Source: Guillardia theta CCMP2712 (Eukaryota; Protista; Cryptophyta). From it: 64,000 nt of DNA. Position 1 is the first letter of the stretch, and each line of letters starts with the position of its first letter. Shown one piece after another: positions 15,750 through 48,290 of this stretch. The notes beneath the pieces are model-generated. The model worked only from the letters and a program-made list of their open reading frames with translations, was not told the DNA's origin and searched no databases. The translations under genes and the position numbers were made by a program. Location of the stretch: positions 544,045 through 608,044 of the forward strand of contig NW_005434667.1 in NCBI RefSeq assembly GCF_000315625.1. The letters run 5' to 3'.

Positions 15750-18547
<2,798 letters not shown>

Positions 18548-19603: not shown

Positions 19604-22600
19604 TCAATGCACCTGTCCCACTCCAGCAGCTTGCTGACCTATCTCCACATTCCCCAGTGAGGCCTCATCTGGTTGCACGATCTTCTCTTCCTCCCCTCCT
19701 CTTTCCACTGCAATCTCAACATTCTGGTTTCCTACAGGAGCATCGCTCGCCTCCTTGATGGTCTTGAGTTCAGGTTCCATCTTGACAGGTTCGATCCCTT
19801 CCAGGTATCGAGGAGAAACAGAACTCTCTACCCAGAACGTCTGCAGCGCCCACCAGTCAGCCTCCTCGAAACCTCCCGCACAACACGCCTCCTCACCTTC
19901 ATCTCTCCCTTCCCTTTGATTTGGATCGTGCCGCGAGGGACCAGGTGAACTTCCGTCCCCTCTGCCTGTTTCTTGAGCACCTCGGCAGCTCGCTCGGAGC
20001 AGTGGATCTTGAGAGCCTCGGAGTTGGACTCCATGCGCGAAGCTGTGTTCACCGTGTCTCCGAAGAGACAGTATCGCAGGTTCCTCGTCCCCACCACGTT
20101 GGCCACCACTGGCCCGCAGTGGAAGCCGACTCGGATCTGCACGGTGCCCTTGGAAGGATCGTCAAGGTCGACGGGGGTCGACTGCGCAGCCTTGATGGCT
20201 CCGATGGCGAAGCGAGCGATCCTCAAGGCGTGGTCGAAGGGCTGGTCCTCCACCAGGTTGGTCACCGCCATGTACGCATCGCCGATGGTCTCGACCTGGA
20301 GGAGCGCAGCTCTTACTCTCCTCGCACGTGGTCAGGGCAGAGCACTCACCTTGAAGACGCCGTAGGTGCTGGACAAGCGGTCGAAGACCGAGTAGAGCCG
20401 GTCGAGCATGTTGGAGACCTTGACGGGGTCGAGGGTGCTGCTGATGGTTGTGAAGCCGACGATGTCGGAGAAGAAGATGGTGACCATGTCACGGCGCTCA
20501 GGCTCGACCTTGCGACCTTCGCGCAGAGCGTTTGCAACGTGACGCCTGCGAGCAAGGATTGTCATGGCATGAGGTGACAGGCAGCGGGCAGAAGGCAGCA
20601 GAAGAGGAGGAGAGAGCAAACAGGCGATGCTCACGGGAACACGTCGTATAGAAGCTCCTCGTGCGACTTTCCACTAGCATTTGACGGCCTGTGCGGTTGA
20701 TATCCTGATATCAAGCTCGAAATTGGCCCGGCATGCTGAGCATCCAGAGCCTTCAGGCGGCGCTCGACCTCCTCGAAGGGAGGGCGGAAGACAGGGTTCT
20801 TGTGCCAGCAGTCCTTCATGATGCTCACCACGTCCGAGGGACACGCGGGAGGGATGGCAGGACGCTTGTCCACCGGCCGTTTGAGATCGGCCACCTCCTC
20901 CAGCACCGTCCTGGTATCCTCTCCCTCATACGGATCCCTGCGGCTGTACACCTCTGCGAGCACGATGCCGAAGGCATACACGTCGGTCTGCGGAGTGTTG
21001 GTCCCTCCGTTGAGCAGCTCGGGGGCCATCCACAAGGGAGTGCCGCAAGCTCCCAGCTGCTTCTTCTGGCTGAGACCGAAGTCAGCGACCTTGGCTCGGA
21101 ACTTTGAGTCCACCAGGACGTTCTGTGCTTTGAGATCGCCATGGACGATGAGCGGGTCTGCTGCATGAAGGAAGCGCACGCCCTGAGCGATGTCGCGGAG
21201 GATGGGAAGGATTGTCTCCCCCTCGATCACCATGGTCTCGTTGTGGAGCAAGTCGTACAGAGACCCGTGATCCATGCACTCCATGATGAGCATGGGCTCC
21301 GTGTTCCTGTCTCCGATGATCGCGCCCATGACGGTGGTGATGCAGGGGTGGCGGAGCTTGGAGAGGATACGCATTTCTTGGACGAAGTTAGCCTTGAGCT
21401 CGGCGTGCTTGTCCTTCTTGAAGACGCAGAAAGACAGGAGGCCAGATTCCATGTCATCATCATCGTCAGAAGATTTGTTATGAGAACCCGAGCTCAGACC
21501 CATCACAGATCCTGTACCATTGGTAGAGAATCCTTTCAAAGATCCCCGAGTGAAGTGTTTTGACGATCCCGGTCCTGCAGCCATACTAGCATGTGCAGCG
21601 TTAGGAACAACCTGGTTTGTTGAGCTTTTCTTGCGGTCCTTGTTCTTCTTCGGGGGGATCACCCTCTTGACCGCTACTGTCGTTCCTCTGTACTCAGCTT
21701 GCACAACAAGTCCGAAGGTGCCACGTCCAAGGATCTCGACGGGGTTGTTGTACTGAAGCTCATCAGGCCTGACCAGCCACAGGGAGTCTTGTTTCCTGAT
21801 CTGATGCTGCAGCCAGAGCCAGACCAAAACCATCAAAACCAAGACAACAGGAACGACGATGACAGGGATGAACCAGGCAAGGCTGAGACAATTAGACCCC
21901 GAACGAACTGAGTAACTGTCACAAACACATTCTCCTTGTGCTGTTGGAATATGATGAGTGCCGTACTCAGCCACGCAGTCACGACTTTTGACTTCAATGA
22001 AAAGCGGGGACTGTGATATCTGCACGCCGTCTGCGAAGATTTCCACCAGCCATTGACCCTTTTCCGCAATGTCCAGCGACAACCTGTACTGATAGCTGCC
22101 CAGCGCCTCTGCCGTGCCCTCCTGGATAGTCAAGGTGTGAAGCTTGAAGCTGACGTTCAGGTTAGCTCTCTGAAGGTTGTCCAGCACCCTGCAATCCTTC
22201 TCAGTGATGACTCATCTCTACTCTCCCTCTTTCTCATCGTATCTCTCCCTTCCCCCTCCCCTTCAATCCCCTCCCTCCTCCCACCCCTCCTCCCTGGCTG
22301 GGTCTTGCCATCACCTGAAGATAACCGAAGTCTTCTGCGACGTGATGCCGCACACTGACATCTTGGGACATCCTACCTTGTTCTTGACATATGCTGCAGC
22401 TTGAGTGCTGTTGATTTCCTGGAACACATCCACGTCGAAGGCCTGAGTGCAAGGCTTGCAGACACACTGTGACCCCGACGGACACGTTCGCCCCTGGCTT
22501 GAGCATCCGTCCGCTACATCCTGGGGGCTATTCTTGAAGTATCCTGGGGGACATACGATGGAGTCATAGATCGCTGTACCTCGGATACACTCCATCTGGC

Positions 22601-23783
22601 CCGTGACGGGGTTCTTGGCGATGAAGTCCAGCGACTCTTGCATGTTCCTTAGCTCCATGTACGACAGCGTCGGGATCCATCCCGCTGACCCACTGGCCTT
22701 AGCGGCAGGGTCCGTCGCCTTCATCTCCATCAAAGCTCGTTGCACCTCTCGCTGTAGACACACAATACTCATTAGCTCTCCTCCCCCCCCGACCCCCGCC
22801 CTCCTTTTACCTGCACTAGCCAGTTGACATGATCGAGCGCCGCCACGTTCCACTGGGGATACAAGACCGTCGAAGACTCGAAAGGGTACGGCTGGCCGTT
22901 CTCGTATACCTTGACTGGCGCCAGATACCGGAAATACGACTTCTTCGTCTTACCCTGCCGACACGTACAAGACGTCAGTCCCTTCCAAGGCACAGCTCAG
23001 CACTCGCCCACCTCGCTCTCCATCAGCTCGATCTGGTTGGTGCGTACGAAGCCGACGTCGACCTTCTTTTGGTACACCATGTTGACCACAGTACCTTGGT
23101 TGGACGTGAAGACCAGCTGGGCAGGGTCTTGGATGTAGTTCAGGCCGTTGTCGACCATGACGCGGAACTGCGCTTGCCCCGACCCCAGCCCGGATATCGA
23201 AGCCGCCGCAACTGCACAAAACAACAGTCTGTCAGCCCAGCATGTCACGTCGGCGATGCGTCAGGCGGCAGCCCTTACTTGACTTGTCCTTGAGGTCTGC
23301 GATGGTTTTGATGTCCGTCCTGTCGGCTCGGACGAAGATGACGCCTCCAAACAGGGTGAAGTCGTACGTCTTGTCGCCAAGCTTCTGCGCTCCTATCTGG
23401 CTTACCAAGGACGAGGCTCCGTACTGAGACTCGATGCAGGAGTAGGCAGACGGGTTGACGTAGATGAAGTCGACGAACTTGGTCTCTACCCACGTGTAGA
23501 GGGTGGTGAAGTTCAGAGGTACCATGGTGAAGCTGATCTTAGGATAGAAGACGTCTCCGAGCTTCCTGTTGAGGTACTCTCCGAAGGTGAGGTTGAACTG
23601 CTCGTAGGCAGCATCGACGCCTCGGATAGCGAGCACGCCTACTTTATAGGAGTACTGTGTGACTGTACTTGGGAGGGTGACGTTAGGAGCTGGGCAGGAG
23701 GAGGCGTCGACAGTAGTATAAGGAAAGAGAACGGTCAGGGCGAGAAGGAAGAGGGGAAGTAATCGAGGAGAAGGAAGAACCAT
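19604..23783 (-). CDS. Receptor kinase-guanylyl cyclase A: signal peptide, PBP2 (phosphonate-binding-like) sensor, Cys-rich/Ig-like region, TM, TKL kinase, class III cyclase
   Basis: Sensor motifs KVGVLAIRG...FTMVPLNF...[26 protein letters not shown] and [37 protein letters not shown]. Kinase motifs [30 protein letters not shown]. Cyclase motifs [39 protein letters not shown]. The last exon ends ...VGQVH* at 19604. Confidence 0.9.
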
Positions 23784-24812
23784 TCTTGTCTTCGCGATGC
23801 ACCCAGAAATTCAGGTATGACTCATCATGGCAAGGAATATTAAGGTGCGACGGGCAGAGGAGAACCTAAGAATCAATGTCAGGATTCATACCCGCAAATG
23901 GATTCTTCAACTGGCTCCTATTATAAACAACTTGGTTTTCACTGGCACTAATGCCAAAAATGCCCATACTGTGAGAGGGGGAACTCGAGATGGAAGGGTC
24001 ATCGATTCCACGATCGAAAGGAATGGTATGTTTGAACGATGAGGAGGGGATAAAACTTGAGGACACAAGTAGACGGAGCAGGAGGCATTCAAAAGCTGTC
24101 TGCCTGCAGCAACTACATTGATCGCTACCACAGCCCTGTTGCTCGCATCAGCAGGGTGAAGGGGGTAAAGTTGGAAGGAGGGGGTAGTCCATTGAGGCGG
24201 TAGATTCCTAACTAGAGAGGACCGGGTCCAAGCTGTATGAAACAGGGGTGGTCCAGGCGAAGTAATAGATTTGGAGTAGGATATGGGTACAAGAGGTCTA
24301 ATTAGAGAGGGGACGGGGTCAGTGGGGTAGGGCTACTTCCGAGGCTTCGTGCGTTAGTCAGTGACCAGGAGAGGCGGGGGATACTTGTTTCATTCGAGTG
24401 AATAAATTCTTCTCGCATATTTGAATAATTCAGCAGAATTTTCAATGGTTGCGTTTGTATATTCAAGTGTATCCACGGAAAGGCCTGAGATGAGGGTGGT
24501 CAGTAGGTCCGTCCTGCACCATGAACTACCACCCGGTGGGATATATGGGTTTGTCTGGCCATTAGTTGGGGTGGGTCCTGTCATCCGAGCCCGGCCCGCG
24601 TATAAGTGCATTGTAGCCCGGCCGGCACTGGCGGGGGAATCATCGGATCATTGGGAGGTAGACCCCCCTCCTACCACGTAACTTACTAGTAAGAATGGGG
24701 GTGCCTGGCAGCCTCTCTTTCGGAACTGAAATTGAGTAAAGAAACCAACTGAGGGGACTCGGAAGCGGCCGAACCCCCTGCCCGACCTATACTTCCATTA
24801 TCAGTTTACCAC

Positions 24813-26867: not shown

Positions 26868-28643
26868 TGGGACGAACTAGAATGTTATTGAGAAGACCCT
26901 TGTTGAACTACTGACTCCACCGCCCCCCCCCCCCCCCCCCCCCCTCCGCAACCCTCGATGATTGGGATGATGACTGGGATATCAGCATTGACATCTTTTT
27001 CAATTCTTTGGATTTGGTTTCCATCAGAGAATCATGTTTATGAACGAGATTGGCTGAAAAAAAATCTTTCATCTAAACGGACTGATACCTTCAAGCAAAT
27101 CGTGCTGCGGGAAAGCAGCTTGCTTCACTTTTTGATAGGTTACTTGTTTCCAATTTGGATTGCATCATTGAGTGAATTATTCTGCTCTTGTGACACCTAG
27201 CAGCCATGCCTATCCTCCTGGAGTAACTTGATTTACTTCAGACCGATTACTTGATCATGTGTTTTCACTCTCAAGGCAGGCGAACAGAGCAAACCTTGCT
27301 GTTCAGTTCCGCTGGCCATGGATGTTTCTAGATCGATCCCGCCACATATTTGCTTGCCTCATCTGAATTTCTCGTCTGATTCAGCTGCTTGGTGTCTGCT
27401 TTCATCTTCTGTCTACGATCGGCCTGTTCCTCTCCATATTTCGATTTCCTGTGCTGAATACCTCGACTCCCCCGACTCAAGATGATCGATCATCTTGCTA
27501 AGTTGCAAGTTCGCATGCTCATTCATAGTCACGTCCGCCTTCACGCAAGTGTAATTTAGAAATCAGTATGAGGACAATCAGGACTAGCACTGCGGCACTC
27601 AACATTTACTCAAAGTTAAGTTAAAAATCAGTACGAGGACAATCAAAAGTTCCGGCACACAGGGGGCTCAGGCTGCGTATGACGCATTATTATTACTTTA
27701 CTTTGAGTAAAGAACTGAAGAATGATTATTATTATCTATTGTTCTTTTATGGTCTATTGAGCGCGTCGAGGTTCAAGACGGTACCACCGCAATACTCGAA
27801 TTGTTCTGGTAGACCAGGCAGGGGGTCTTGCTATATGTCAATGAGGGGTGGTGGAGGATACCTCACCATATACTATAAATCTTTCAATAAATTTTATTGT
27901 CATCTTCGTCCCCACGATATCTTTCACCCTGTCAGCATCCGCCGCAACACCCTACCCCCTCCTATATCACGTGATACTAGAACCCTACCTCCTCCTTGCC
28001 TAGTATGGTACCCCACCCATTCTACTTCAGTGATATCCTGGCAATACCTCCACCCCACCCTTCCCTTGAACGGGCTCACGAAGAACCCCCTCTTTGGCCT
28101 ACATTGTTCTGAAGAACCACCCCTACTTTGAGTGACCCCTTACCGCACCCCTCCTACCCCACCGAGTGTGCTATCCATTGTTGCTGGTCCCTCCATGGTC
28201 CCAGACGCCCCGCAGAAAGGCGGCCAAGGCGCGGAGTACGGATGTAGAGAAGGGAGCATGAGAGAAGGAATGGAGATGGAAAGACTCGCACAGGATAGTG
28301 CTGCAGTAGTAGACTCAGACGAGTTTTCAACAGCTAGCCTCCATGATTGAAACCAGAATGTGACTGGAGTTCGGGTTGTTACATTCGAGGAAATCTTGAG
28401 GCAGGCGGGGAGAAAAGACGTGATTGTTAGGCAGAGGGCATGAAAACGTGATGTAATAGAAATGCTGTGAATTCTCCTTATGAGTGATCGGCTAAGTCTC
28501 TCTGTAGATAACTCACGGGTTCTTGATTGTTTCCTTGGCAGGATAGGGACCACAGATTCAACTCCATCAAACATGCGTTGTGACGAATAAGAGACGATTC
28601 TCCGAGATTCAAGTGATCGTCAAGTGAAAGGATTCAGGGAAGG

Positions 28644-31600
28644 ATGCTCTCTTCTTCTAGACACGTCCTGCTTTGTTTTCTCGCCCTTTTCGTCCTCGTT
28701 GCGGATGCTGCTGTGGACAACTCGTCCTGCCCAGCTCCTAACGTCACCCTCCCAAGTACAGTCACACAGTACTCCTACAAAGTAGGCGTGCTCGCCATCA
28801 ACGGATTCGCAGACGCAAATGCGAAGTACAAACTCATGTTCGAAGAGTACCTCAACAGGAAGCTCCGAGACGTCTTCCACCCTAAGATCAACTTCACCAT
28901 GGTACCTCTGGACTTCACCACCCTCTACACGTGGGTAGAGACCAAGATCGTCGACTTCATCTACGTCAACCCGTCTGCCTACTCCTGCATCGAGTCTCAG
29001 TACGGAGCCTCGTCCTTGGCCAGTCAACAAAGTATACAGAAGCTTGGCAACGACACTTACGACTTCGCCCTGTTTGGAGGCGTCATCTTCGTCCGAGCCG
29101 ACAGGACGGACATCAAAACCATCGCAGACCTCAAGGACAAGTCAAGTAAGAGCTGCCGCCTGACGCATCGCCGACGTGACATGCTGGGCTGACAGACTGT
29201 TGTTTTGTGCAGTTGCGGCGGCTTCGATATCCGGGCTGGGGTCGGGGCAAGCGCAGTTCCGCGTCATGGTCGACAACGGCCTGAACTACATCCAAGACCC
29301 TGCCCAGCTGGTCTTCACGTCCAACCAAGGTACTGTGGTCAACATGGTGTACCAAAAGAAGGTCGACGTCGGCTTCGTACGCACCAACCAGATCGAGCAG
29401 ATGGAGAGCAAGGTGGGCGAGTGCTGAGCTGTGCCTTGGAAGGGACTGACGTCTTGTACGTGTCGGCAGGGGAACACCAAGAAGTCGTATTTCCGGTATC
29501 TGGCGCCAGTCAAGGTATACGAGAACGGCCAGCCGTACCCTTTCGAGTCCTCGACGATCTTGTATCCGGAATGGAACGTGGCGGCACTTAGTCATGTGCA
29601 TTGGCTGGTGCAGGTAAAAGGAGGGCGGGGGTCGGGGGGGGGGGGAGGAGAGCTAATGAGTATTGTGTGTCTACAGCGAGAGGTGCAACGAGCTTTGCTG
29701 GAGTTGGATCAGTCGGACCCTGCCGCCAAGGCAGCAACGGTCAAGGGATGGATCCCAACGCTGTCGTACATGGAGCTGAGGAACATGCAAGAGAAGCTAG
29801 ACTTCATCTCTAAGAACCCCGCCACGGGCCAGATGGAGTGTATCCGAGGTACAGCGCTCTATGACTCCATCACTTGTCCCCCAGGATACTTCAAACAGAC
29901 CCAAGCAGAAGTCGAAGCAGGGTGTGCCAAGTTAAAATTGACTTGTCCCGTTGGCTCATCGTGCACGTGCAAGCCGTGCACCAAGGCGTTTGACGTAGAT
30001 GTCATTCAAGTGAATGACACGCTGACGGCAATCGCAAACAATGGTCAAACGTACCTTGGATGTGCGAAGATGACGACGTGTGCTCTAAGTCGACAGAAGT
30101 CGAAGTTCAAATTCAGGTCTTCTTATTTTTCGTTAGTCCATCGTCCGATTTCTGATCGACTCAAAACAGTGTGATTGACAACAAGAAGCGAGACAACATG
30201 GTGTTCACATACATCTTGCACTTGACAGACAGATTGGTGAAAGGGCAGGCAAATAAAACCACGACTCTTTACAGCTACGAGATTGTTGAAGAGATCGATT
30301 TCAAGGGTCAGTGGCTCATAGAAATCTTCGCAAACGGTGAACAAATCAATGAGTCCCCTCTTTTCATTCAAATCGCCAGTCGTGATTGCGCAGCCGAATA
30401 TGGAGCAAACTCTCTGCGAGTAGCGACAGATGCAGGTGACTGTGTGTGCAACAGCCGATCATTCAAATCTGGAAGCAAGTGTGTCGACCTAGCCTGGTTC
30501 ATCCCTGTCATCGTCGTGCCGATTCTGTTGCTCCTTGTGTTAGCAGTGATCATGTGGATGAGACATCAGATTAGGAAACAAGACTCCCTGTGGCTGGTCA
30601 AGCCTGATGAGCTTCAGTACAACAACCCCGTCGAGATCCTTGGACGTGGCACCTTCGGACTTGTTGTGCAAGCTGAGTACAGAGGAACGACAGTAGCGGT
30701 CAAGAGGGTGATTCCCCCGAAGAAGAACAAGGACCGCAAGAAGCGAATGAGCGCAGAGTCCATGGCTCACACAAGCATGTCAGGATCAGCAAGAAACATG
30801 TCAAGAGGGTCCGTGAAAGGATTCTCTACCAATGGTACAGGCTCCCTCATGGGATTCAATTCAGGCTCTCAGAATGGCTCCTCCTCCATGGACGAGGACG
30901 ACATGGAATCTGGCCTCCTGTCCCTCTGCGTCTTCAAGAAGGACAAGCACGCCGAGCTCAAGGCTAACTTCGTCCAAGAAATGCGTATCCTCTCCAAGCT
31001 CCGCCACCCCTGCATCACCACCGTCATGGGCGCGATCATCGGAGACAGGAACACGGAGCCCATGCTCATCATGGAGTGCATGGATCACGGGTCTCTGTAC
31101 GACTTGCTCCACAACGAGACCATGGTGATCGAGGGGGAGATGATCCTTCCCATCCTCCGCGACATCGCTCAAGGCGTGCGCTTCCTTCATGCAGCAGACC
31201 CGCTCATCGTCCATGGCGATCTCAAAGCACAGAACGTCCTGGTGGACTCAAAGTTCCGAGCCAAGGTCGCTGACTTCGGTCTCAGCCAGAAGAAGCAGCT
31301 GGGAGCTTGCGGCACTCCCTTGTGGATGGCCCCCGAGCTGCTCAACGGAGGGACCAACACTCCGCAGACCGACGTGTATGCCTTCGGCATCGTGCTCGCA
31401 GAGGTGTACAGCCGCAGGGATCCGTATGAGGGAGAGGATACCAGGACGGTGCTGGAGGAGGTGGCCGATCTCAAACGGCCGGTGGACAAGCGTCCTGCCA
31501 TCCCTCCCGCGTGTCCCTCGGACGTGGTGAGCATCATGAAGGACTGCTGGCACAAGAACCCTGTCTTCCGCCCTCCGTTCGAGGAGGTCGAGCGCCGCCT

Positions 31601-32679
31601 GAAGGCTCTGGATGCTCAGCATGCCGGGCCCCTTAGCGTGTTTGCTGGATATCATCACAAGACTTTGGACAATGGAAAGTCGCACGAGGAGCTTCTATAC
31701 GACGTGTTCCCGTGAGCATCGCCTGTTTGCTCTCTCCTCCTCTTCTGCTGCCTTCTGCCCGCTGCCTGTCACCTCATGCCATGACAATCCTTGCTCGCAG
31801 GCGTCACGTCGCCATCGCTCTGCGCGAAGGTCGCAAGGTCGAGCCTGAGCGCCGCGACATGGTCACCATCTTCTTCTCCGACATCGTCGGCTTCACAACC
31901 ATCAGCAGCACCCTCGACCCCGTCAAGGTCTCCAACATGCTCGACCGGCTCTACTCGATCTTCGACCGCTTGTCCAGCACCTACGGCGTCTTCAAGGTAA
32001 GTGCTCTGCCCTGACCACGTGCGAGGAGAGTAAGAGCTGCGCTCCTCCAGGTCGAGACCATCGGCGATGCGTACATGGCGGTAACCAACCTGGTGGAGGA
32101 CCAGCCCTTCGACCACGCCTTGAGGATCGCTCGCTTCGCCATCGGAGCCATCAAGGCTGCGCAGTCGACCCCCGTCGACCTTGACGATCCTTCCAAGGGC
32201 ACCGTGCAGATCCGAGTCGGCTTCCACTGCGGGCCAGTGGTGGCCAACGTGGTGGGGACGAGGAACCTGCGATACTGTCTCTTCGGAGACACGGTGAACA
32301 CAGCTTCGCGCATGGAGTCCAACTCCGAGGCTCTCAAGATCCACTGCTCCGAGCGAGCTGCCGAGGTGCTGAAGAAACAGGCAGTAGAGACGGAAGTTCA
32401 CCTGGTCCCTCGCGGCACGATCCAAATCAAAGGGAAGGGAGAGATGAAGGTGAGGAGGCGTGTTGCAGTGCGGGAGGTTTCGAGGAGGCTGACTGGTGGG
32501 CGCTGCAGACGTTCTGGGTGGAAGAGCGGAAGATTTCGACCACCATAGTCGAGAGTGCCACGGAATTCGAAGAGTTTGAAGTCTCCGCAACTCCTGCCAG
32601 GATGTCAATTACTGTCACTGACAACATCACTATGGACGCAGACCTAGGGTTCAGTCACTCAGGTCGCCAACTAGCCTAG
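28644..32679 (+). CDS. Receptor kinase-guanylyl cyclase B, inverted paralogue of 19604-23783
   Basis: Same domain order and intron positions as copy A, with near-identical kinase and cyclase motifs. The last exon reads [10 protein letters not shown]...GRQLA* and ends at 32679. Confidence 0.9.
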
Positions 32680-33042
32680 CCTACTTAATAGGCTAGTCAT
32701 GCCAGGCCGCCCCGCACTCGCGGCAGAGCTTTCAAGTTTTAACGGCGTGATAGTACGGTGCTAGTACGAACCAGCCTAATACGTCAAGCCAAGCATTTAA
32801 TACAAATCTTTGAATGGTCTGCCTAGACTCGTGACTAGTCACTATTGGGCCCGGCGCCGGTCATCCGGTCAGATGGCACGGTGCCGGTGCTGTGTGCCGG
32901 TCACCGTGGCACACGGTCACCGGGTGCTGCGGCCGATCGGACTCTGGTGCGGACTTGTTGGATTGTTTTGACTAAAACAACATCTGTTTTTTACGCCATC
33001 ATGGCGGCGACGGGGAAGAAAGGGGAGCGGAGAAAAGAGGCG

Positions 33043-33320: not shown

Positions 33321-33986
33321 ATGAACGCGCCCAAGATTGAAGAACGCTTCTTCCTCCTTCCTGACGAGGAGAGGTCATCCCAGTGTTCATTTCACCATCG
33401 CCCCTTCATGCACCTGCAGGTTGATAGCTGAAGATGACACCAAGATTGAAGGGGCGACGAACTTCACCATCACCAAGGAGGATCACACCATGTGAGTTTC
33501 CCTGCGCTTCAACGCGCATGTAACCTTTGCTCAGTGGCAATCCTCTCCGAGTACAACTACTGCGAGACCCCTCTGTCCTCTTTGCAGGGTGATCTCAAAA
33601 TGGCCTATCCTCCCCTCTACCTCCCCCCCTCTCTTCACCCTCCTCCTTGTCCTCCTGGACCTCCTCCTCTGCGGCCTCTTCACCCTCTCTACAGGTATAG
33701 GCTTCCCCATCCTCTGGAGACCAAACTTCAGATCAAGATCCAGACCAAGAGCACGTCAAACCCTCAACTGGCGCTCACCGACGCCATCTCATCGCTCAAG
33801 AAGGTGCAAGAATAACCTTCCGTCCTGTCCGTATCAGCCCTTTCCCTTCCTCCTCTCCGTCAGTGATCGCCCCCCGCCTGTCATTTATCATCCTTGCTTC
33901 AGGAGTTCCAGCGGCTCGACAAGGCCCTCGAGGACGCCGTGAAGACTTACAAGGAGCAGGGCAACGCAGGGGCCATGGACTACTAG
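33321..33986 (+). CDS. RPB11: RNA polymerase II subunit RPB11 (multi-exon)
   Basis: Spliced product MNAPKIEERFFLLPDEE...[54 protein letters not shown]...ALTDAISSLKKEFQRLDKALEDAV...MDY*. Contains the EDHT.GN and FAGY..PHPLE signatures. Confidence 0.93.
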
Positions 33987-34205
33987 TGGAGAGGAAGGGG
34001 AGGAGCCGACGAAGGCGGGCGGATGCGATTATAAGGATGCGATCATGAAGAGATTGGGGAAGGAACGAGGAGGGCGGAAGGGGGGTGAAGGGAGAGAAGC
34101 AAGGTCTGCGAAAGCGAATCTCTCGGAATTTATTTATCAAAGTTACCAACGTGAACTGAGGCGGCAGGTTGAAATGCTTATCGTACACTCGGACACTCTC
34201 CTTCC

Positions 34206-36708
34206 TCATCTCCTCCTCGTTCTCTTCGCGTTCCCTCCGTTGGTCATCTCGTCCTCCGACGCTCTCTTGCGGCATTGCACAAATAGGTCGATGATCAGCT
34301 GCAACCCAGCAGGTCAGGCCGACGAGGCTGAGGTTGGCTCAGACTCACATCTCCGATGACCCGAGCAACTTCTTCCGCCTGCTGCAGGGAGCTCGCCGCA
34401 GTTACAGTGCACTTCCCTGCTCTTCTTGTCACGGAGTAGGGATTTGAGGAGGGGGAGAGGGAAGGTGCCTGTGGGGAAGATGTTGACAAACACATTGTTC
34501 GACGCGTCTGTCAGGCAGTCCTTGTTCACGTAGACGCCCAGCCCCTTACCCACAGTCAGCCTCCTCTCGCACACTCGACCTATCCTCACTGTCACACCTG
34601 AAAGCGGTTGACCTTCTGCTTGATGTCTGCCTTGGGTACGTGAACCTTGCACACGCGCGAGCTGTTGTCAGGATGGCTCAGCTGCAAGTCCAGGTCACTT
34701 AGCAATGGGAGGCCACACAACCGGCACCAGAAGCCGAAGCTCTTCCATATCCACCGTGAATCCTTTCTCGCGGAACCCAAGATCAAAAACTCCTACGAGG
34801 CTGGTTTAGAAGAGTGCAGACAAGGCTAGGGACTGGTTGCTACCGAGAATGGACTCTTTCTCAAGGCGAACCTGTTCATGCGTCAAGTACGATATCAACA
34901 CACCTAACACGGAGATACATTGACCGGCGCATCGAGACACAACTTGTGGAGCCAGTTGGGGTTCCCCTCACCCTTTGCGAGACAAGAATCAGGAGGAAAC
35001 GAGGCGCAGCTCCTCTTCAAGGAGAAATCAGAACCTGCAGGAGAGAAGCAGCTATCCCATCATTTACTGCAAACTCCAAGTCAGCTTCATCCAACGAACC
35101 TCTCACTTGATACCGATGCGGCTAACACAGTTTGCAACAACCTTGCAAGCAGTAAGTGACATCTCACCATCCCTGCGATCCCGAGTTATTCATCTCGTGC
35201 GCAAAATGGCACTTCCTCACCGGCAACCAGCAGTCTGGAGCCGCCCAGTCTTGAAGACTTTCACACTGACGTGATCAAACCCTCCAGGTAGCGACCTAGT
35301 TTGCGTAAGAATGAATGTTGCCGGTAGTAATAACCTTACATCGAAACGAAGCAGCAATGGTCAAACTTGTTTGCTGATCTTGCCTTGTTCTTTGATTCAG
35401 ATTGACCTTTCTTTTTCCTTGGCTGTAAAGCAGTAGGTCAACGGATTCTTGTCGTATTCGTGCAGGTTTCATCCATTACCACTCCACGGGTATTGTCGCC
35501 CCAGCGAACACAAGTGACGTAGTTGTCGACAGGACAACGCAGGAAAAACTGCCAAGAACAATTATCGTTAAGAAGACTAGCACCTTGTCGGTCTGCAAAT
35601 CAAGCACCTGCTCCAGATCTATCGTCACAGCGCCTTGCGGAAGGTCAGGTGGAAGAAGCATGCAGATTCCAACGTTGCTGTTCTCCTCGAAAGGGCTTTC
35701 AACGCATTCGTCACACTCCTTGGATTGACAAGAATGCACGGTCATCACCTTGGTGACGGGTAGACAGTTCCACTCATAGTGCGCCGGGTATGACCGTCCA
35801 GCTTCTTCACAGGCTGCATAAAGAAGCGGTCAAACCGATGGTTGACGCTTGTATCATTCACCTGCGGCTTGCGAATGGATGCAGCGTTTTCATGCATGTT
35901 GATATCAAGACTTGCCCTTCTGACCTGAGATTGAACATGAATCACGAGGAAGCCCTCGGAAAATCGATCAATTTTTGCTTACTTGATGCAAGAACGATGC
36001 AACTTCAATAACGTCCTACGGTCGAGTTCACATACAGGATCAAATTCCAGATTTAAGAGCCGGGGGAGTGGGAGGGAGGCTAGGGAGGAGAGGATGAGAG
36101 AACATTGCTATGAACCAAACCTGTTTCAACTGATCTCGCTTCTTCGATTCATCTTCCATTGCCTTGCGTTGCTGCAAAGCGTACCAAATCAGCAATTAAC
36201 AATCATTTGGTATGAGATGTATAGCAAAAACCTGTTCGATTTCAATCAGCGTCGGTCGTCCTTCTGTAGCACCCCCGCCAAAATTGAACGAGCTCCCTCG
36301 AAATGTGAAGGATCCATTCGCCATATTGAAAGAGTTTCCTCGGCTCCGAGATTCAAACAATCCTAGGCTGCCAAACAGATCCCATGAAGACCGGCGCGAT
36401 TGCTGTTGAGGTTGCTGAGATAGTGACTGCAACTGCTGCTGCTGCTGCTGCTGCTGCAGTTGGGGCTGCAGTTGCTGTTGCTGTTGTTGCTGCATGAAAT
36501 CCAAGCCTTCCGTTGCAGACGCTCTCCTGTAGAATATCAAATTAATGCTTTGATGGCAAGAACTGAAAAACAGACCTGCTGCCCCCAAAAGGAAGGACCG
36601 ACGATGCACGTCTAATCGCATCAAACATCAAATCATGGTTTGGTAAGCGAAGTTCACCTACCTCAGTAACGCTGAAGCAACATTGCTGGCATGAGCAAAG
36701 ATTCCTTT

Positions 36709-36742
<34 letters not shown>

Positions 36743-37508
36743 AGGGAAGATGACTGTGCCTAAAGAGGTATTACTCCGCATGCCCCGAAGTCGTCAAACA
36801 ACGCACTGTTTGAGACTGCAGGATCGATTTAATATCATTCGGATCAGAGCTCCCTGTAGTGAACATCGCACCGAAGTCCTGGAGAAACATTCCATTCAGA
36901 TCAAGACATCGAGAGAGTGAAAAGCTCACTGGCTCAAAGTCAATTTCAGCTGACCCAAACATTTGCTGCATAGCAGGATCTGTGTGTGTGTTTCGAGCAG
37001 CATTTTTTCTCTTGGAGCCAACTTCACCACCAGATTGAATATTCCTGTTCTGAAAATTCTGCTGATATACATTTTGCTGGTTTACATTGTTTGTGCTATT
37101 CCATAAACCGTCTTGAGAGTTCATGGTTAGACCTGGATCTTCCACAACCTGGTCGGGTTCAACGAGAGGTAAGATCTCCGAAATTGAGAAGCTTCTTGTG
37201 CCATGAGGTGCCATATTGGTTGGACGTCTTGATACATCTTGATTCTGAAAACATTTGTTCAAAGATTGTGGAAAATTGCTTCAAAGATGAACCTGAATCG
37301 GAAGGTCCATTCTTGCATTCTGCATGGCATCTTGCCCCCAAAGTCCATCAAGCCAGTCTTCAATCGTTGATTCTCCCCGATTTCCGTTGGCATCGCTCAA
37401 CCATCTTGAGGCAGAACTTCGACGCCTTAGACTCATTCCACCATTTTGGTTAAACGCATCAGAATTGTCCGTTCCCTCCATGGAAAATCGTCTTGAATTG
37501 TTGTACAT
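34206..37508 (-). CDS. Divergent TATA-binding-protein-like factor with a long Q/N/S-rich N-terminal extension
   Basis: Hand-spliced C-terminus: SNVGICMLL...VTIDLEQVL...YVTCVRWGDNTRGVPRKKKG...NKFDHCCFVSMSLPGGFDHVSVKVFKTGRLQTAGCRDGEMSLTACKVVANCV...ESILGVFDLGF...FTVDMEELRLLL...NRFQGLGVYVN...VFVNIFPTGKCTVTAASSLQQAEEVARVI, i.e. two TBP repeats. A polyQ stretch lies at ~36400-36495. The start codon is uncertain. Confidence 0.75.
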
Positions 37509-40500
37509 GATGTGTCTACAAGACAAAGAAACGTCAATGCAACAAACGTTTTACACTAATATCCACCTTTAAACCTCACAGAGGTCGCCAGGAACTGCCC
37601 CCCTGAGTCGTTACAGTACCCTATTGAAACCCTCAACTGCAAATCATTGTTAGTGCCAGGTCAATTACGACATGTTCCAAATCTAGGATGCCTGTTGGCA
37701 AGCTACAAAACAACAGCGGCTGGTTCACTAGCATAACATGGATTTCTTGATAAGCTAAGAATCAATTCAAATGTCATGGTGGCTCTGCTCACAGACAGGG
37801 CATAAGTACACTTTTTTCTAGATCACATCTGAAGCAACCAGGTTGCATGTTGTTAGCTCATCCTAGCAACCCTTCCTGATGTTCGTGTTGATCGCACAAG
37901 AAGGTCCAATCCTCACATGTGGAACTCAAACAAGAATTCGCAATTTTTAAGTGATTTCGATGGAAATCCACGTCCCTGTTCCGATCTCCTAAACCCTCAG
38001 CATAGACTGCTCAAACATGACATCCACAAATATCCAACACTTTCATAACCATCTACTTCTTGGAGCTACATCTCCACCTCGTTTATCTGTCCTTGTGCTC
38101 AAAGCTCCGGATTCTAGATGCTTACTCTGTGCCTGCTACCAACCTACAATTCTGTGTCGAGTGCGAATAACATGAATCCGTCGCTGAATCTTCATCCGCA
38201 GGCCTAATATCTTCTTGTTTTTCTAACATATGCATATTCATAGGGTCTATGATACAAAAAAATATGTCTGTCCCAGCATATGTTCCCCCATCAACTAAAT
38301 CATCAACTGTGACCACCGAATGACTCATCAACCCCGCATCCTTCCCACACCCTTATCTTCTCCTGCCTCGTTATAAAACCAGCTCATGCTCCTGATCGCG
38401 TCAAAATCCCTGATCCATGTATTGCCCCAGCATTAGTCCGCAGCCTCTCCCCTCCCTGCATTCCTTCGCATCTCTATCCCTATGCGCATTTTCGATCTGC
38501 GCCGCCTTGCTTCCCATTTCCCCCCGTTCCACCCCTCCCTTTTCACCCCACCCCCTATTTTTCCTTTCTTATCACCCCTTGTTTCCCAGACAGGACTACA
38601 CCCATTGACTACCCTACCTACCTTAACCTCTTTCCGTCCTATCCGACCCCTGAGCCCCCACCCTCTCTGCCTACCCCTGGGCTATCAATCACACCCCACT
38701 CTTCCCAACAAGCCATGTTCTACCACCGGTGTCTTGACTATCCCTACCCCTACCTTTCAAGTCCCACTGGTGCTTTTCCTGCCAATGACCACCCGTAGAT
38801 CCTAGACCATTGACTACCCTACCAATGGTCATTGTCCAAAATGCCTAGGAGGACCCGTGCATATCTCACCCCCATCCTAATAGACGCTCAGTACCTGAAC
38901 AAGGTTCAGAATATCTGATGCACCCCCACCTCCTTCCTTAAGTACCCCCACCATCTTTATCTAATCACCCCACCCATTCTATAGAATTCATTAGAGCACC
39001 CACCCCTCACCATCAGCCGTTACACATATTCCGGCATACTACCAGGGTGGGAATCATTCGAACACCCACCACTCATAATTATTGACTAGTACCCTACCTC
39101 CACTCTCGTGGTACCCCCAGATGTAGTCTTCAATAACAAGGGGTAGTCCTTGTCATGTTCAGCCTCACCACCTTATCAATACAGACCACCCTACCCTATT
39201 TGTTTCCTCAAATGATGGTCATTGAACCCGGTGATGAAGGAACACCCCACCAAACACTACGGACTTTACTCCTGCAGGGCCTCCATACCTACCCCACCCC
39301 CAATGGTCCTTCCGACTCCCTAAAATGGTCGGTCTGTTTTATAACCCACCCCTATATATCTCCTTTGGCAGGGTTATGTGTCAGTTGGGGTACACCCACC
39401 CCCAATATGGGAAGTCTCTTCACCACCGGGTGTTTTTAGTGTCAAATAGGGGGACCTGACGAGATGGGGTCAACCAAAGAGAGCTCATAGCTGGTGGGTA
39501 GTTCATTGAGGCGAATGGAGGCTACCTAAGAGGGGGGGGGGTTTCCACAGAGGTCAACGAAGCAAGAGTTGGGGGGGTTGTGTAGATACCCGAGGCGTAG
39601 GTCGCCCCCACCCCCCACCCTTCAGTAGTGTGTCCCAGTACTCAAAGTTTTAGTCAGTTTCCGAACGGTTCGGCGGCCGCTCGGGGGCCGGGCCCGCCGG
39701 GCCCGTGGCGCACTGACTGCCAGACTGCCCGGCACTCTCAGCCGGAAGCCTGCCGGTATCATATCCGGCCAGCCCGGCGGTTTAAAAGCAGTTTGTGACT
39801 CCGACAGAACTCTTCAAGTCCGGGCCGCCGGTCGTACATCATCCGAAAGGCTTTAACATGCGACCGTCAGCCGGTACTACGGTAACTAACCGTGAACGGA
39901 GTTCAAGTGCTCAGAGTCCGAGTTCGACTCGGCCTCGGAGGGTCCGCGGCCAGGCTCCCGGTCGACGCCGGGCCCTGCCGTCACGGAAGTTGACGACTCG
40001 GACGGTCCGGCCCGGGAGCCTCACTGCCGCTGAGCGGCCGGCCCCGGTCTCAGGCCCCGGGCGGCCCTGCCGCGGCCGGGCCCGGCCTTTCCGAAGGTTG
40101 GACTGAGCGGGGATGTGGACAAGAATCGTGATATGCAAGAGGAGGTGGGGAAGGAGGAGGTTGACTTGTTGATCGCTGGGTCGCTTCCTCTAACGCTATC
40201 CGAGGCTAGCATCATCCCCTCCTCTGAGAGTCCTGTTTCTTGCTGCTCCTCCTGACTTCCTCTGCATGCTCCTCGTCCTTCTCTTGCCCTCGAACTGCTT
40301 CTCTCCCGACCTACACTTGTACTGATGGCGCTGATATTTACTTCATCTTCTCTTCTGAAAGTCTTGCATCGTTATTCTCATCATGTGGCATATCTATACA
40401 ATCTTTGTTTCTCCTCTAAGGACCCCCCATTCAATGCATGCCCTATCCTCAATTCAATGATTGTGGACTCGCTATTCTTCATAGCAAACCCATCGGCTCC

Positions 40501-42844: not shown

Positions 42845-45610
42845 AGGACAAGGCAAACGGGCGAGGCTCCCCTTCTTATTCTTTCAGGTTTGAGCTTTTT
42901 AATCGAGCATTGCGGCTCACCCGGCGTGGCCCGTGGCGCGGCACTGCCGTTGGCACGCTTGCCACGGGTGACCGTCCCAAGCTGACGCTGCCGAAACTGC
43001 CACCGTGGCGGCCTGCCGGTGCTGGCCGGGCGGCCCGGCGTCCGTGACATTGGCCGGGCCGCCGGCCGCGCCGGGCCGGGGCGGCTTCCGGGCGTCCGAC
43101 GGAGGGCCGGTCACCGGGTCGACCTGACGGATCGCATGCCAGCCGTGCCGCTGAGTCAGATCTGAGCGCCGAGTTAACAAAACTCTGCAATGTAGCCTAC
43201 CGTGGTCAGTGTGACGAAGTGCAGGCCTTCCTAGCCGTCTTGCTAAGGTCCTCTCGTGTCTGGATGCTTGGCCAGTGGGTTTCACATCCTAGCATACAGT
43301 CTATCCCTCATGCAGTGCTCCTCATTGAATTCTGGTTTCCTGCATGGCCGCACTGAAGTAACTCGGGAGCAAACTTGAAACTGACGGTACCATCGGTCTT
43401 GTTGCAGCTAAGGTCGATATGATGTATGCATTACTTTGGCATAGTACTACAAACTGATTATGCTCCGTCACGACCCTTACTCAGCCTGGCAGGCTCCCGG
43501 AGTCCGATTCCCCGGGGCCCGGCGTAGCCTGACTGGCAGGCCGGGCCGTTGCGCCGGGCAGGCGGCCCCGATCTACTGAGGGCCCTACCCCGATCTCTAC
43601 TGGTACCTACCCCTGTATTCCCTAGCTTCCAGTAAACTATTCGAACTCACACCTACCCACCCAAAGGAGGTCGTAAGGTCCTCATTTGATAGCCTAGGGT
43701 TACCACCCCACCCCAGAAACATGTATTCACACCCATTTCATGACCCACCCCTTTTTACTACCTACCTTTCAATTACCACCCACCCACCCCTAAACCACCT
43801 CCATGCCCTCTATCGACTTTTTTGTTCTCCTGACCACTCGTGTCGCTCCAAATCGAACAGGTAGGGGTCCATCCACCCCCTGCTTGAAGGGACTTCGTAC
43901 CCCTGAGGGCCCATAAACTTTTTCAAAAAGTTTTGACAGATGAGGTACCGAGTACCCCACCCTATCATATCCCTCCCCACGTTCCTGGTACCCCACCTTA
44001 GCTTGTAGGGAACCATGGCCTCTGTTTCACCAATTTTCCCACCCCCACCCTCGTTCCAACCGACCAGCTCCTAATCTTGACCCCACCCTTGCTAAAGAAT
44101 TCTTGAGTACCCTCCCCGTCCCAAGACATCACCCACCCACCCCATCAACAAATATGTACCCCACAGACCCAATTTCAGCCATGGAAGGCACTATCTCAGG
44201 ACCCCTACTTATTTTCACTACCCCTTCTTTTGTGGGAGCCTTGAAGTAACACCCCTCCAAGCCCCTCATCCGATAACCCCTGTCGCCTAGTCATATCCAC
44301 CATACCCTGTTTCTCACCCCCCCTTTTCCCAACCACCCCCCTGTGGGCACCTTAAGTACCCAGTGCCCTCTGTTCCTAGACCCTTTTCCTACTGTGCTAA
44401 CCCCCTTCCTTACTACCAACTGCCTTACCACCTACCCCCTTTTACTAACTTTCACCACCCATAACGCACTGAATTGTTATCATACCCCTATTTTTGAAGC
44501 AAACGATATGGAAAAGTACCTGGTTCTGAATGACCCTACCCACTTCCACAATGACCCTACCCAGTCAGACACCACCCCACCCCGTAGCATGAGCGATTTG
44601 AGGAGCGCTAGTCGTCATGGCGCGCCCTTGCTCTGACTATAAGCATTACCCTCCCACTCATCCGTCTCATCCTCCTATCATGCGTCTACTTTTTGTCTTT
44701 GCGATCCTATATCTCACCAATACTTCAACATCTTTTATCCCTGCCATGCTTCTTCCACATCCTGGTAGCTTCGTCTTGGAAAACAGTTATACTTTGCAAC
44801 CCGTAGCTGGTCCACATCTTTCACATCATTACTTCCTGTTATGTTTTACCGTCGTATGTCAACTCATTCATGTAAAGAAGTTGTGTCAAAGTTCCTCACT
44901 TCATTTTTCTTCTTCGAAATTCCACGGTTCACCCCAACCTCTCCAAATTCCTCAAACTATTCTTCGAATTTTCCTCTTTGTCGACAAAGTTTTGAGGGTA
45001 ACGCTGATGTTGATCTCACTTGGTCCTTGACTTGCATCAATCATACGTGTACAATTTGAGGTTATCAGTACTCTCTGCTCCTCCTTTTGCCTCTCATGTG
45101 ATGATTGGTCGTGATGCGTTCCCTGGCACGGTCATTATACTAAGATACGAGTCGGGCACGTTTGAAATCCAGTCTTGTGTACTCCTCGTAAATCTAAATC
45201 ATGTCAAATGCGATTTCTGGTAATGCTGTGTGTTGCCCATGTGTGTCTATTCTAGAAACATGTACATGTGGACTTGGTACTTTATCCTTGTCTTGGCCGT
45301 TGAGTTTTTATCAGCATTTATACAAAGTCTATGATTCGGAAGATTTCTCTTTTTAAATCACTTCTTTTTGCCAGGCGGATTTTCCCGTTTGAATGATTGC
45401 CACTGGATTGGTTTTCATTCTGGTCTTCATACGGGACAATTGATTCAGCTCTGTAGGTGGAACGATGGAATGTGAGTGGTGATATTCGTGTGGGTGCAGA
45501 TTTGAGGGCGGTGAGCATCCAAGGCTCATCAGATACCATCTGCTGAATTCTGTCTCAAAATCTGAGTTCGCATCATCTTCATTGTGTGATTGCAGAAATA
45601 CCATATCGAG

Positions 45611-48290
45611 ATGTCTGGAGGTGTGAATGGTTGGCTCAACGGGAGCATTGCAAGTCCAAGTGATTCCGAGGATGAGCAAGAACCAGCTGTACGCGGCAGC
45701 AAAGCAAAGTGGACAGCAGAAGAAGACAGCAGGCTTGCAGCACTCGTTGATCAATTTCACGCGAAGAATTGGAAAAAGATCGCTGAGAGAATGGAAGGAA
45801 GGACAGATGTTCAATGTCTGCATCGGTGGCAAAAAGTTCTGAACCCAGATTTAGTGAAAGGTCCATGGACGAAAGAAGAAGATAGGACAGTGATTGAATT
45901 GGTTAGTCAGCATGGCCCAAAGAAATGGTCTTTAATTGCCTCGCATCTACCTGGCAGAATTGGAAAGCAGTGCCGGGAAAGGTGGCATAATCATCTCAAC
46001 CCAGATATCAAAAAGGAAGAGTGGACTCCTTTGGAGGATAGTATAATCATTCACGCTCACAGAGTATATGGAACAAAATGGGCAAAGATTGCAGCTTTGC
46101 TGCCGGGGCGTACAGACAACGCAATCAAGAATCACTGGAACTCCACGATGAAAAGAAGGTGAAATATGTCCTTCACTCGATATGCTTCCATGACTTTTTC
46201 CATTTCATAGATACTTCATGAAGACAACGGATACAGAAGGAGAGATTCCTGCTTTGGTAGCTGCAGCGATGTCAGGAAGCCATGAATACAGTGTTCAGCA
46301 GCTGAAACTCTTCACGGGAGTCGAGGGAAATGATCATCTAACGGAAACTCAGTCGAAAAATGGCAAAGTTACCAAAGATTCACAAATCGTTCCAGCAGCT
46401 GCGAATTCTTCTCAAAAATCTCTTATGGTTGAAGACAAGAGCCTTCTGCACTCGTCTGTGACGATGCGCAACGGTCTCCCACAGCAAGCGGCCATTGTCC
46501 CAAGAATTTCAAACCCCAAAACCCTACTGTACAGAGAAACGGCCACTTCACCCTTTCTAAAAGCCCAAGCAGCATATCAAGCGAAGGCACAATTGTTGCA
46601 TGAAACTTCAGCAGACGGGCTAAAATCGCAAATCAAGAAGCAGCACCATCCGTCACAACAAATCAAGAACTTGCAACCAAGTTCACAAAGCCTGCTTTTG
46701 TCGTCAACTTTGCCTCAAGGCCAAGAGTCCAATCTGTACTCCAATTCTCCACTGCGGCTGAAACAACCGACAAAGAAGAGGCAAAAGCAGAAGGACACAA
46801 AGAGCACAATGCTCATGGGTGCAACTTTCAATTCGTTTGCTCACTCTAGTGGAGGAATGGTAAATATCAATTCGGTATCTGTTCACGGACATTATGCCTC
46901 TCCTTTGGATGCCACAAAGCGAACGGTGAGTTTTCCCCTTATGAGCTCAATTTGATCTTTCTGTGCCTCTTGGCTGTGTGATTTGGTCTCGCTGGTACTT
47001 ACTAACTCTATTGCAGCAGGACCAGCTGGAAAGCTTGAAGATTCATCAGCCGCAGAAGAACAAGGGCGGAAGCCGCGGAAAAGATGCTAGTCCGCTTACA
47101 ATGGACATCTATGCTGATGCCTTCAGAAAAGTAGGAAACGCTATGATACAGAGTCAGAGACTTCAGTCTTCAAGTCAAGGCAGCCAGGTTCAGGTGCAGG
47201 CCCCGAGGAAAAACTTGGGAGTAAGGCCTGATGTGAAGCCGTCAACGAGCAAGAGGGGGAGCAATCGAACGCCCAAGAAGCCTTCCTACTCAAGTGCTTA
47301 TGAAGGGTCAAGGCAGAATGAGATTCCCCCTGTTACTTACCAGAACAATGGCCAGTTCAACCTGATTCAAGAGCTCGATGCTGGGAACTCAAGGGACATC
47401 TTCGAGTGCTTGCAAGGAAAGAGTCCTGATTTGCATCCTTCCACCTTGCTGGACTCTCCTCTTCTTTCCAGTGAATTGGCTCCCAACACTCCGCATGTCC
47501 TGGCTCCGCTCAGCGATAATCAGAAGTCTTCTCGGACCCCCGCCAGCACTTCAGTACAGCCTCTTGCGGGCGCGCAATGGTTCCTCTCTCCCCTCCTGGC
47601 TAGCAAGGATTCACCGGGCACGGGTTGGAACGGGACGCCCTTGCTGAACTCGAACAACTCGCCCACGGTCAGCCCCATGTTGAGCTCGTGCGATACAGTC
47701 GCTGGAGCTCAGAAGAGAAAGATATCGAGCCCCTTCCTCTCCTTCTCTCCCTCCTCTCAGCCGATGACGTCTCTCCCTGTAAATAATAAGCGGTTCGCTT
47801 CCTCCAAGAGCTCGGCGCCCTGCACGTCTTCGCTATGGCAGCCAACTGGAAGGCTGTCGGTGTTGAGCTCGGGCAATGAGAATATGGCAAAGAGCGGGGA
47901 TAGGCAGCCCTCTTCGTTCAGCTTCCAAGACGGCATCAACTTCGGGCACAGCCATGACGGACACGATGGAGTGAACCCGGCCAGCCCTGCACTGTCAGCG
48001 CAGTCGTGCGGGAGCATGTCTTCCTACTCTCTGGGGCTGCAGTCTACCAGCCATGGGGCTAGAGAAGAGGCGCCGACTAGTGGACTGATCGACCAGACGG
48101 TGGCGGTGCTGAAAGAGTACCAGAACAGCCCTGAGATGCGAATGGCGGGGTCGAGTCAGATCCTTCCGCTGCCCAGCCCCCTCATCAGCCCGCTGATCGG
48201 GTGAGTTGCACTTGTCATGGCTGACGATGACCTGACGCACTCGTGGTGTTGTACAGGCCGATGATGGCGCCGAAGATGACAGAGGCATGA
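45611..48290 (+). CDS. MYB3R: Three-repeat MYB (R1R2R3) transcription factor
   Basis: R1 [10 protein letters not shown]...[16 protein letters not shown]; R2 KGPWTKEED...[17 protein letters not shown]; R3 [10 protein letters not shown]...[17 protein letters not shown]. Long S/P-rich tail with many SP/TP sites. Last exon ends at 48290. Confidence 0.93.

Follow-up and report, generated by a model that had tools for sequence, protein, structure and literature searches.

The TATA-binding protein (TBP) ranks among the best-conserved archaeal and eukaryotic proteins, and its known extra copies are cellular duplicates. Eukaryotic paralogues such as TRF2/TBPL1, TBPL2 and the dinoflagellate TBP-like factor (TLF) are duplicates of the cellular gene in which most signature residues of TBP are retained, and TBPs of a viral type have been reported in 107 viral genomes (PMC7221094). 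Here, we describe a TBP-like gene of the cryptophyte alga Guillardia theta CCMP2712, located on the minus strand at 34206..37508 of a 64,000-nucleotide window (NCBI RefSeq assembly GCF_000315625.1, contig NW_005434667.1, positions 544,045 to 608,044 of the forward strand; all coordinates below are window positions). Its protein family, judged from sequence comparisons, very probably belongs to the viral-type TBP lineage and not to the cellular one.

The coding span comprises 23 exons, from the ATG at 37508 to a stop codon that ends at 34206, and encodes 705 amino acids (aa). Its outline was drawn from joints in transcript-type contigs, and the spliced product matches the database protein P0006 letter for letter. 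There are 23 introns, 22 in the coding span and one in the 5' untranslated region (37516..37566, minus strand, joint 37515/37567), with an in-frame stop upstream of the ATG. The contigs come from runs that were guessed to be RNA (10 such runs contain 0.43-0.47 of the words; no run is recorded as RNA), and they show 20 of the 23 introns directly as joints; introns 35814-35861, 35925-35982 and 36760-36806 were placed from loose contig ends, and the resulting product matches P0006. Along 34299-37566, at least 15 joints, at GT-AG introns, each occur in three of three contig runs. All 13 introns within the TBP domain are joined, eight of them in each of runs X1, X4 and X8 and six in each of the spliced runs X8, X7 and X4, with one intron common to both sets. 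Beside these three spliced runs, a fourth (X15) covers 34050-34960 unspliced in a single piece, and the single raw-read RNA run contributed 119 reads, at the 3' end of the gene only. Introns 34793-34843 and 34872-34918, which flank a 28-nucleotide exon, are each retained in minor contigs, and the first contains an in-frame stop.

An earlier reading of this DNA, made from the sequence alone, had proposed that spliced minus-strand exons encode two TBP repeats, had quoted several of the resulting peptides and had noted that one junction needs a GC donor. All three proposals agree with the gene described here: the quoted peptides are present in the spliced protein, and the junction is a GC-AG intron of 52 nucleotides (34417..34468, minus strand; joint 34415/34468 in three of three spliced runs), for which GC-AG is the sole fitting reading. 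The coordinates then given, 34206..35730, missed the 5' part of the gene, which runs 1.8 kb further to its ATG. An artefact of over-eager splicing was also considered and is ruled out by the contig joints and the identity to P0006. The existing NCBI model, GUITHDRAFT_150476 (182 aa, “hypothetical protein”), corresponds to the last 182 residues of P0006 and falls in the same 90% cluster; the annotation is corrected accordingly, since that model covers just the C-terminal 182 of 705 residues. Taken together, the existence of the gene and the TBP fold of its protein are near certain.

The C-terminal domain (residues 411-687; 34263..35762, minus strand) is spread over 14 exons of 28-199 nucleotides each and is predicted to form a complete two-lobe TBP saddle. 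The 705-aa protein matches the Pfam family TBP (PF00352) with 24.8 bits, above the cut-off of 22.9, with its best stretch at residues 642-677; three homologues score 24.6-28 bits and the truncated NCBI model 20.1, and none of eight single exons matched any Pfam family. In an AlphaFold model built from a 71-row alignment, the predicted local distance difference test (pLDDT) is mostly above 90 in the domain. VIA-align superposed 175-180 of about 180 TBP residues on archaeal and eukaryotic TBP (Z 14-15, root-mean-square deviation 2.8-3.9), with the next unrelated fold at Z 7.6. Foldseek against the PDB gave 44 matches at E <=0.001, those listed all being TBP chains or TBP fusions, and the best viral structural matches are the named TBPs of ChoanoV1 and Terrestrivirus (E 1.7e-12 and 1.5e-12, E-values from different structure libraries not being comparable). 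The same saddle was obtained in a second model, of P0002 (97% identical), from a 36-row alignment that held no viral sequences. A single-sequence search of solved structures with P0002 gave no TBP match; the family profile does match solved TBP structures, with a best E of 3.7e-7. Several further BFVD entries from giant viruses match the saddle under the name “uncharacterized” or that of the early transcription factor large subunit (e.g., mimivirus R327, a Tupanvirus orfan, IIV3 017R).

The gene belongs to a family with several paralogues. A search with the reading frame of one exon returned three homologues, all with PF00352 and one from Proteomonas sulcata. When a profile of these homologues was run against 1.84 billion representatives, 64 matches were obtained: 60 family members or fragments and four virus-like proteins. 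Their best BLAST match was a cryptophyte-type reference in 59 cases, a viral locus in four and a canonical TBP in none; P0012 had no BLAST row and was recognized by eye as an orthologue fragment. Ten clusters that were looked up named Rhodomonas abbreviata, Hanusia phi, G. theta (GUITHDRAFT_120836) and P. sulcata. Similarly, a further family search gave 46 matches, and the eight with an organism shown are all cryptophytes: Hanusia (five), Baffinella frigidus, G. theta (GUITHDRAFT_114559) and one given as “Crypt...”. The family is likely limited to cryptophytes.

A tree resolves four subfamilies, A (the gene at 34206-37508), B, C and D, and two unassigned proteins, P0015 and P0041. On record, G. 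theta has members of A, B and D and P. sulcata members of A, B and C; the Proteomonas orthologue is about 70% identical to the G. theta protein. Subfamily D (P0033, P0095-P0104, P0118) combines very short branches with an intact Y-x-P-E stirrup and, on these sequence features, is the best candidate for a viral-type TBP with a core TBP role in cryptophytes; its NCBI model in G. theta, GUITHDRAFT_114559, has just 146 aa. In subfamily C (P0117, P0047), an N-terminal stretch looks HMG-box-like by eye, and Pfam reported none. Members of subfamily B (P0070, P0018, P0071) have a conserved domain of unknown kind ahead of the saddle, and both of their firm phenylalanine positions are changed, with Trp in seven of seven and Tyr in six of seven. 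P0015 has a weak C-terminal UBX-like match (15.7 bits, below the cut-off).

The domain assignment itself is not new, as PF00352 already stands on the database records of several members; what appears to be new is the viral affinity, along with the family and the full gene model. No account of a cryptophyte TBP of viral type turned up in the literature searched, and catalogues of virus-eukaryote transfers (e.g., Irwin et al. 2022) may list such genes. Guillardia terms gave no match in four supplementary files of PMC7221094. An orthogroup labeled “TFIIB/D-type transcription factor” is reported to be expanded in G. theta (bioRxiv 10.64898/2026.02.23.705090) and may or may not correspond to the TBP family.

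The evidence for a viral affinity begins with an insert of about 30 residues in lobe 1 (residues 455-487; 35363..35518, minus strand), a β-hairpin with a basic tract that, aligned by the viral profile, includes Phe487 of an F-x-N/H-Q motif. Helix 1 and strand 3 lie 48-51 residues apart in complete subfamily A rows and 38-102 in 31 viral rows, against 15-19 in 17 cellular rows; the insert is shared with viral TBPs and absent from all 17 cellular rows. Two columns that played no part in choosing the viral rows point the same way. At the 487 column, Phe is found in 31 of 31 viral rows, and at the 577 column, Asn occupies all 31 viral rows and each of the 12 rows from C, D and the two unassigned proteins, compared with Val in 17 of 17 cellular rows. 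The Gln of F-x-N/H-Q is Cys in subfamily A and Gln in those same 12 rows.

Profile comparisons are consistent with this pattern. Reference sets were assembled by motif (two viral sets, later widened, and canonical eukaryotic and archaeal TBPs), and 10 of 10 tested proteins of viral set 1 match Pfam TBP. Home-built profiles scored P0006 at 33.6 bits for viral set 2, 22.5 for viral set 1, 8.4 for archaeal and 1.9 for canonical eukaryotic TBP, and the match to viral set 2 runs unbroken over 438-679, insert included. Conversely, the family profile gave viral loci a median of 45-48 and cellular loci one of 17. When the motif was left out, the part after it still gave viral medians of 35 and 30 against cellular medians of 21 and 20, although the cellular loci had been picked by a motif in that part; in the part before the motif, viral set 2 alone scored (maximum 28 versus 6). 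In profile-profile comparison, subfamily A matched viral set 2 at 97.6% probability over 202 columns and set 1 at 94.2%, compared with 13% over 35 columns for cellular TBPs.

Phylogenetic trees separate the same groups. A careful tree (72 rows, 218 columns, built without two badly trimmed archaeal rows) placed cryptophyte and viral proteins apart from cellular TBPs with support of 100/100 and recovered the family as monophyletic (99/93). The split kept a support of 99 in a tree from which the columns of motif and insert had been removed, as had subfamily B and a single long viral row, and of 100 in a tree with 41 viral rows, from which 21 earlier rows were omitted for speed or bad trimming. 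An approximately unbiased (AU) test under a mixture model rejected a clade of the family with canonical eukaryotic TBP (p 2.6e-6). The sequence-only reading had predicted a TBP fold and, from the insert, a viral rather than cellular type, and had named nesting within canonical eukaryotic TBPs as what would speak against the latter. The structural models give the full saddle; the profiles, insert lengths and trees bear out the viral type; and that nesting is what the AU test rejects. It had further offered a domesticated viral gene or a deep-branching paralogue as origins: the viral lineage is upheld, and neither alternative is singled out, since the family is sister to the sampled viral TBPs. 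That reading had overlooked the paralogues, this gene belonging to one of at least four subfamilies in cryptophytes.

The surfaces with which TBP meets DNA and its partners are partly kept in the G. theta protein. The exon at 35221..35295 carries lobe-1 strands S4-S5 with Lys507, Phe509, Gly512, Gln515 and Gly518; that at 34469..34544 carries lobe-2 strands S3'-S4' with Phe650; and that at 34598..34681 carries the lobe-2 stirrup and, at its end, Phe626 (all on the minus strand). Phe509 and Phe650 align with canonical intercalating phenylalanines in all groups and, together with Gly512, Gly518, Gly653 and Thr658, are invariant in five of five orthologues. Phe626 is Phe in four of five orthologues, Met in Proteomonas, and Tyr in paralogues and most viruses. 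For the first intercalating phenylalanine, the register is ambiguous: Phe487 lies in the viral F-x-N/H-Q motif, and in sequence alignment the canonical Phe falls three columns later, at Cys490. The earlier statement that all four intercalating phenylalanines are retained was therefore too strong, holding for Phe509 and Phe650 and leaving Phe626 variable and the first uncertain. The stirrup of subfamily A is a longer, basic loop that lacks the acidic E-x-E for TFIIB/Brf, and Y-x-P-E is intact in C and D; acidic stirrup residues bind TFIIB (PMC7221094). Overall, the domain is basic (isoelectric point 8.5); it carries two additional basic loops and is followed by a basic tail.

Ahead of the domain lies a low-complexity arm (residues 1-338; 36250..37508, minus strand), predicted to be mostly disordered (pLDDT below 50 for most of it), with two Gln tracts and most of eight R-R-x-S/T motifs. 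Residues 1-410 hold all eight, against 0.37 expected, a count reached in none of 2000 shuffles, for a motif that was picked after viewing the sequence. Four of these motifs are kept in Hanusia, and a 105-aa stretch of the arm is matched at 74% identity by Hanusia phi P0001. A long helix is predicted between arm and domain (residues 339-387; 35880..36249, minus strand; pLDDT about 90-97), and a similar helix was seen by eye in subfamilies B and D. The protein ends in a basic tail (residues 700-705; 34209..34226, minus strand), judged by its sequence a likely nuclear localization signal; most of the family members compared have basic tails. No hydrophobic stretch was found in the first 50 residues, which disfavors targeting to the nucleomorph compartment.

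On balance, we lean slightly toward reading this protein as a nuclear TBP saddle of giant-virus lineage that was captured before cryptophytes diversified, was duplicated, and now serves as a gene-selective, promoter-binding regulator. Under this reading, the alga would have taken up a giant-virus TBP before that diversification, and duplication would have followed. The protein would be located in the host nucleus, as its basic tail and the lack of a hydrophobic leader suggest. The saddle may grip the DNA minor groove through Phe509, Phe650, Phe626 and the two basic loops; its target would be a non-TATA promoter element, proposed on the ground that the contacts made by Asn, Thr, Leu, Arg and Pro in canonical TBP are altered. 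Since the acidic stirrup is gone, the usual recruitment of TFIIB would be lost, and the protein may work by way of the Gln-rich arm and the long helix, with partners other than the usual TFIIB site and with its activity tuned by phosphorylation of R-R-x-S sites. Much like TRF2, which serves a subset of promoters, it is likely to be an alternative promoter-binding factor. More tentatively, cryptophytes may possess a second, multi-paralogue promoter-recognition system built from a captured viral TBP, in which C and D may share or take over core TBP duties and the derived copies would be promoter-selective and signal-regulated.

We consider movement from virus to alga the rather more probable direction, because the viral type ranges widely among viruses and was found in one eukaryotic lineage. 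The acquisition has to be older than the divergence of the named cryptophyte genera. Recent insertion of viral DNA is ruled out by the 22 coding introns, the host-like composition (GC content 0.50 for the gene and 0.54 for the window) and the cellular neighbors; the 12 window open reading frames scanned with Pfam gave cellular families or none. No second F-x-N-Q-type pattern was found in the 64-kb window, a weak test given the introns. Nesting of the family within the viral sets is not rejected by the AU test (p 0.124; p 0.42), nor is it favored. A pattern with the cryptophyte-like Thr found 24 viral loci, three of them above 20 bits on the family profile and none nearer than the other viral rows.

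Several observations weigh against the favored reading. Three trees place the family as sister to the whole set of sampled viral TBPs (viral monophyly 90/62, 82 and 83); scans of viral contigs for close relatives gave 102 and 113 pattern matches, none of them confirmed, and neither the scans nor the trees found a donor viral lineage. The trees were built without TRF2, dinoflagellate TLF, kinetoplastid TRF4, and nucleomorph or mirusvirus TBPs, the last of which exist (PMC10132985). The viral rows were chosen by motifs resembling the query, and the sets behind the home-built profiles differ in diversity. For two family members, the three top-ranking Atlas clusters are TBP clusters of Nucleocytoviricota (0.95-0.96); the accompanying recognition values lie below the tool's threshold, and these matches lend weak support. 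The searches began from cryptophyte profiles and most matches came without an organism, so that members outside cryptophytes may exist. For instance, P0080, a 105-aa cluster member that is 52% identical to a G. theta paralogue, is labeled as coming from an archaeal metagenome-assembled genome; it is probably mis-binned. Finally, many contacts whose roles in canonical TBP are established by its structure are altered (lobe-2 Asn to Ser575, lobe-1 Thr to Ala517, both Leu to Lys507 and Asn648, Pro to Gln627, Arg to Tyr632), and DNA binding is consequently not assured.

The sister position and the missing donor are also what would be expected if the family descended from an old cellular paralogue of TBP that was the sister or the source of giant-virus TBP, that survived only in cryptophytes and from which viruses took theirs. 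The long introned history and the deep paralogues would fit such an origin as well. However, it demands loss in all other sampled eukaryotes, and the viral type spans many giant-virus groups; moreover, viral monophyly is weakly supported, nesting is not rejected, and AT-rich composition can draw viral proteins together. We regard this origin as unlikely, though it fares better than the three explanations that follow.

A virus-derived protein need not serve the host's own promoters. It has been proposed that viral TBP and TFIIB make up a system of their own, distinct from that of the host (PMC7221094), and giant viruses occur in cryptomonads (PMC12747079); a captured TBP could then act as an antiviral decoy that sits on the promoters of giant viruses or ties up viral TFIIB and thereby blocks viral transcription. 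The loss of the adapter-binding stirrup in the subfamily A copy of G. theta would suit this role. It is nonetheless improbable, since branches that are short and orthologues that are about 70% identical from genus to genus look like housekeeping constraint and not like an arms race, spliced transcripts appear in ordinary culture-type runs from several studies, and the protein has a long regulatory arm with kinase-type motifs. Equally improbable, in our judgment, is a domain that has given up DNA binding and works as a protein-interaction scaffold: the changed equivalents of Asn, Thr, Leu, Arg and Pro, the uncertain first Phe and the replacement of the third Phe by Met in one orthologue would agree with it, but all five orthologues retain Phe509, Phe650 and the turn glycines, and the predicted saddle is full and basic, with its added loops and tail. 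A fast-evolving duplicate of canonical eukaryotic TBP, drawn to the viral proteins by long-branch attraction, is already largely refuted and retains very little credibility, for despite a stem of 1.2-1.6 changes per column and trees that lack fast-evolving cellular controls, the mixture-model AU test stands against it (p 2.6e-6), as do the insert, common in position, length and motif, and the shared Phe-487 and Asn-577 columns outside the selection motif.

The neighboring genes recognized in the window are of cellular type. An RPB11-like RNA polymerase subunit gene (33321-33990, plus strand; RNA_pol_L_2, 37.6 bits) stands tail to tail with the TBP-like gene, and contigs in two runs extend from its exons through 34298, which suggests overlapping 3' ends; the arrangement is possibly due to chance. 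Two near-identical genes in opposite orientation, at about 19800-23800 (minus strand) and 28600-32700 (plus strand), encode receptor-like proteins with periplasmic-binding-like, kinase and nucleotide cyclase domains. Other neighbors are a three-repeat Myb transcription factor (45590-48204, plus strand, 184 bits), a collagen-like Gly-X-Y repeat protein (51948-52406, plus strand, 73.7 bits) and a choline transporter. A very long CAG/CTG triplet run lies at about 17080-17490, in a gene that by eye resembles a tRNA pseudouridine synthase.

Depending on its origin, the family would bear on different questions. If the capture is real, a virus supplied part of the core transcription toolkit of its host; if the ancient-paralogue origin is correct, cryptophytes preserve a cellular sister of viral TBP, with consequences for the source of the giant-virus transcription apparatus. 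To our knowledge, a second, virus-derived promoter system, if true, would be the first known case in which a general initiation factor of viral origin was domesticated for transcription in a eukaryote. The favored reading also predicts non-TATA promoter classes in cryptophytes, and G. theta offers a cultured host for studying the separate viral TBP-TFIIB system proposed in PMC7221094.

Among described systems, the TBP-like proteins of Nucleocytoviricota (ChoanoV1, Terrestrivirus, Yasminevirus, Heterosigma akashiwo virus and those like B263R of African swine fever virus; PMC7221094, PMC5825884) share with the G. theta protein the two-lobe saddle and a long lobe-1 insert ending in F-x-N/H-Q. They also share the K-x-F-x-x-G-x-x-Q strand pair, a long inter-lobe linker and the loss of host-factor signatures. 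Identity in structural alignment to the best viral matches is 12-16%. Unlike the viral proteins, the G. theta protein is encoded by a nuclear gene with 22 coding introns, bears a 410-residue regulatory arm and has at least four paralogues, and this copy has lost the lobe-2 Asn, the Gln of F-x-N/H-Q and the Y-x-P stirrup. With canonical eukaryotic and archaeal TBP, it has in common the fold over the entire core (Z 14-15), Phe509, Phe650, Thr658 and the turn glycines; it differs in its 17-20% identity, about 100 extra core residues, the absence of N-I/M-V strands and the lack of an acidic TFIIB stirrup. TRF2/TBPL1, TBPL2 and the dinoflagellate TBP-like factor are, like it, extra TBP-fold factors with N-terminal arms, for which non-TATA promoters have been proposed or shown (PMC7221094, PMC11453091). 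The G. theta family differs from those paralogues in grouping with viral TBPs; the AU test and the residue alignment speak indirectly against descent from cellular TBP in company with TRF2 or dinoflagellate TLF. Host nuclear regulators of viral origin are known from the KilA-N factors SBF/MBF of fungi and the DVNPs of dinoflagellates, in which, as is proposed for the G. theta family, a viral DNA-binding protein was domesticated for the control of host genes and then expanded. The former are sequence-specific factors and the latter a chromatin protein, whereas the G. theta family is the counterpart of a central general initiation factor.

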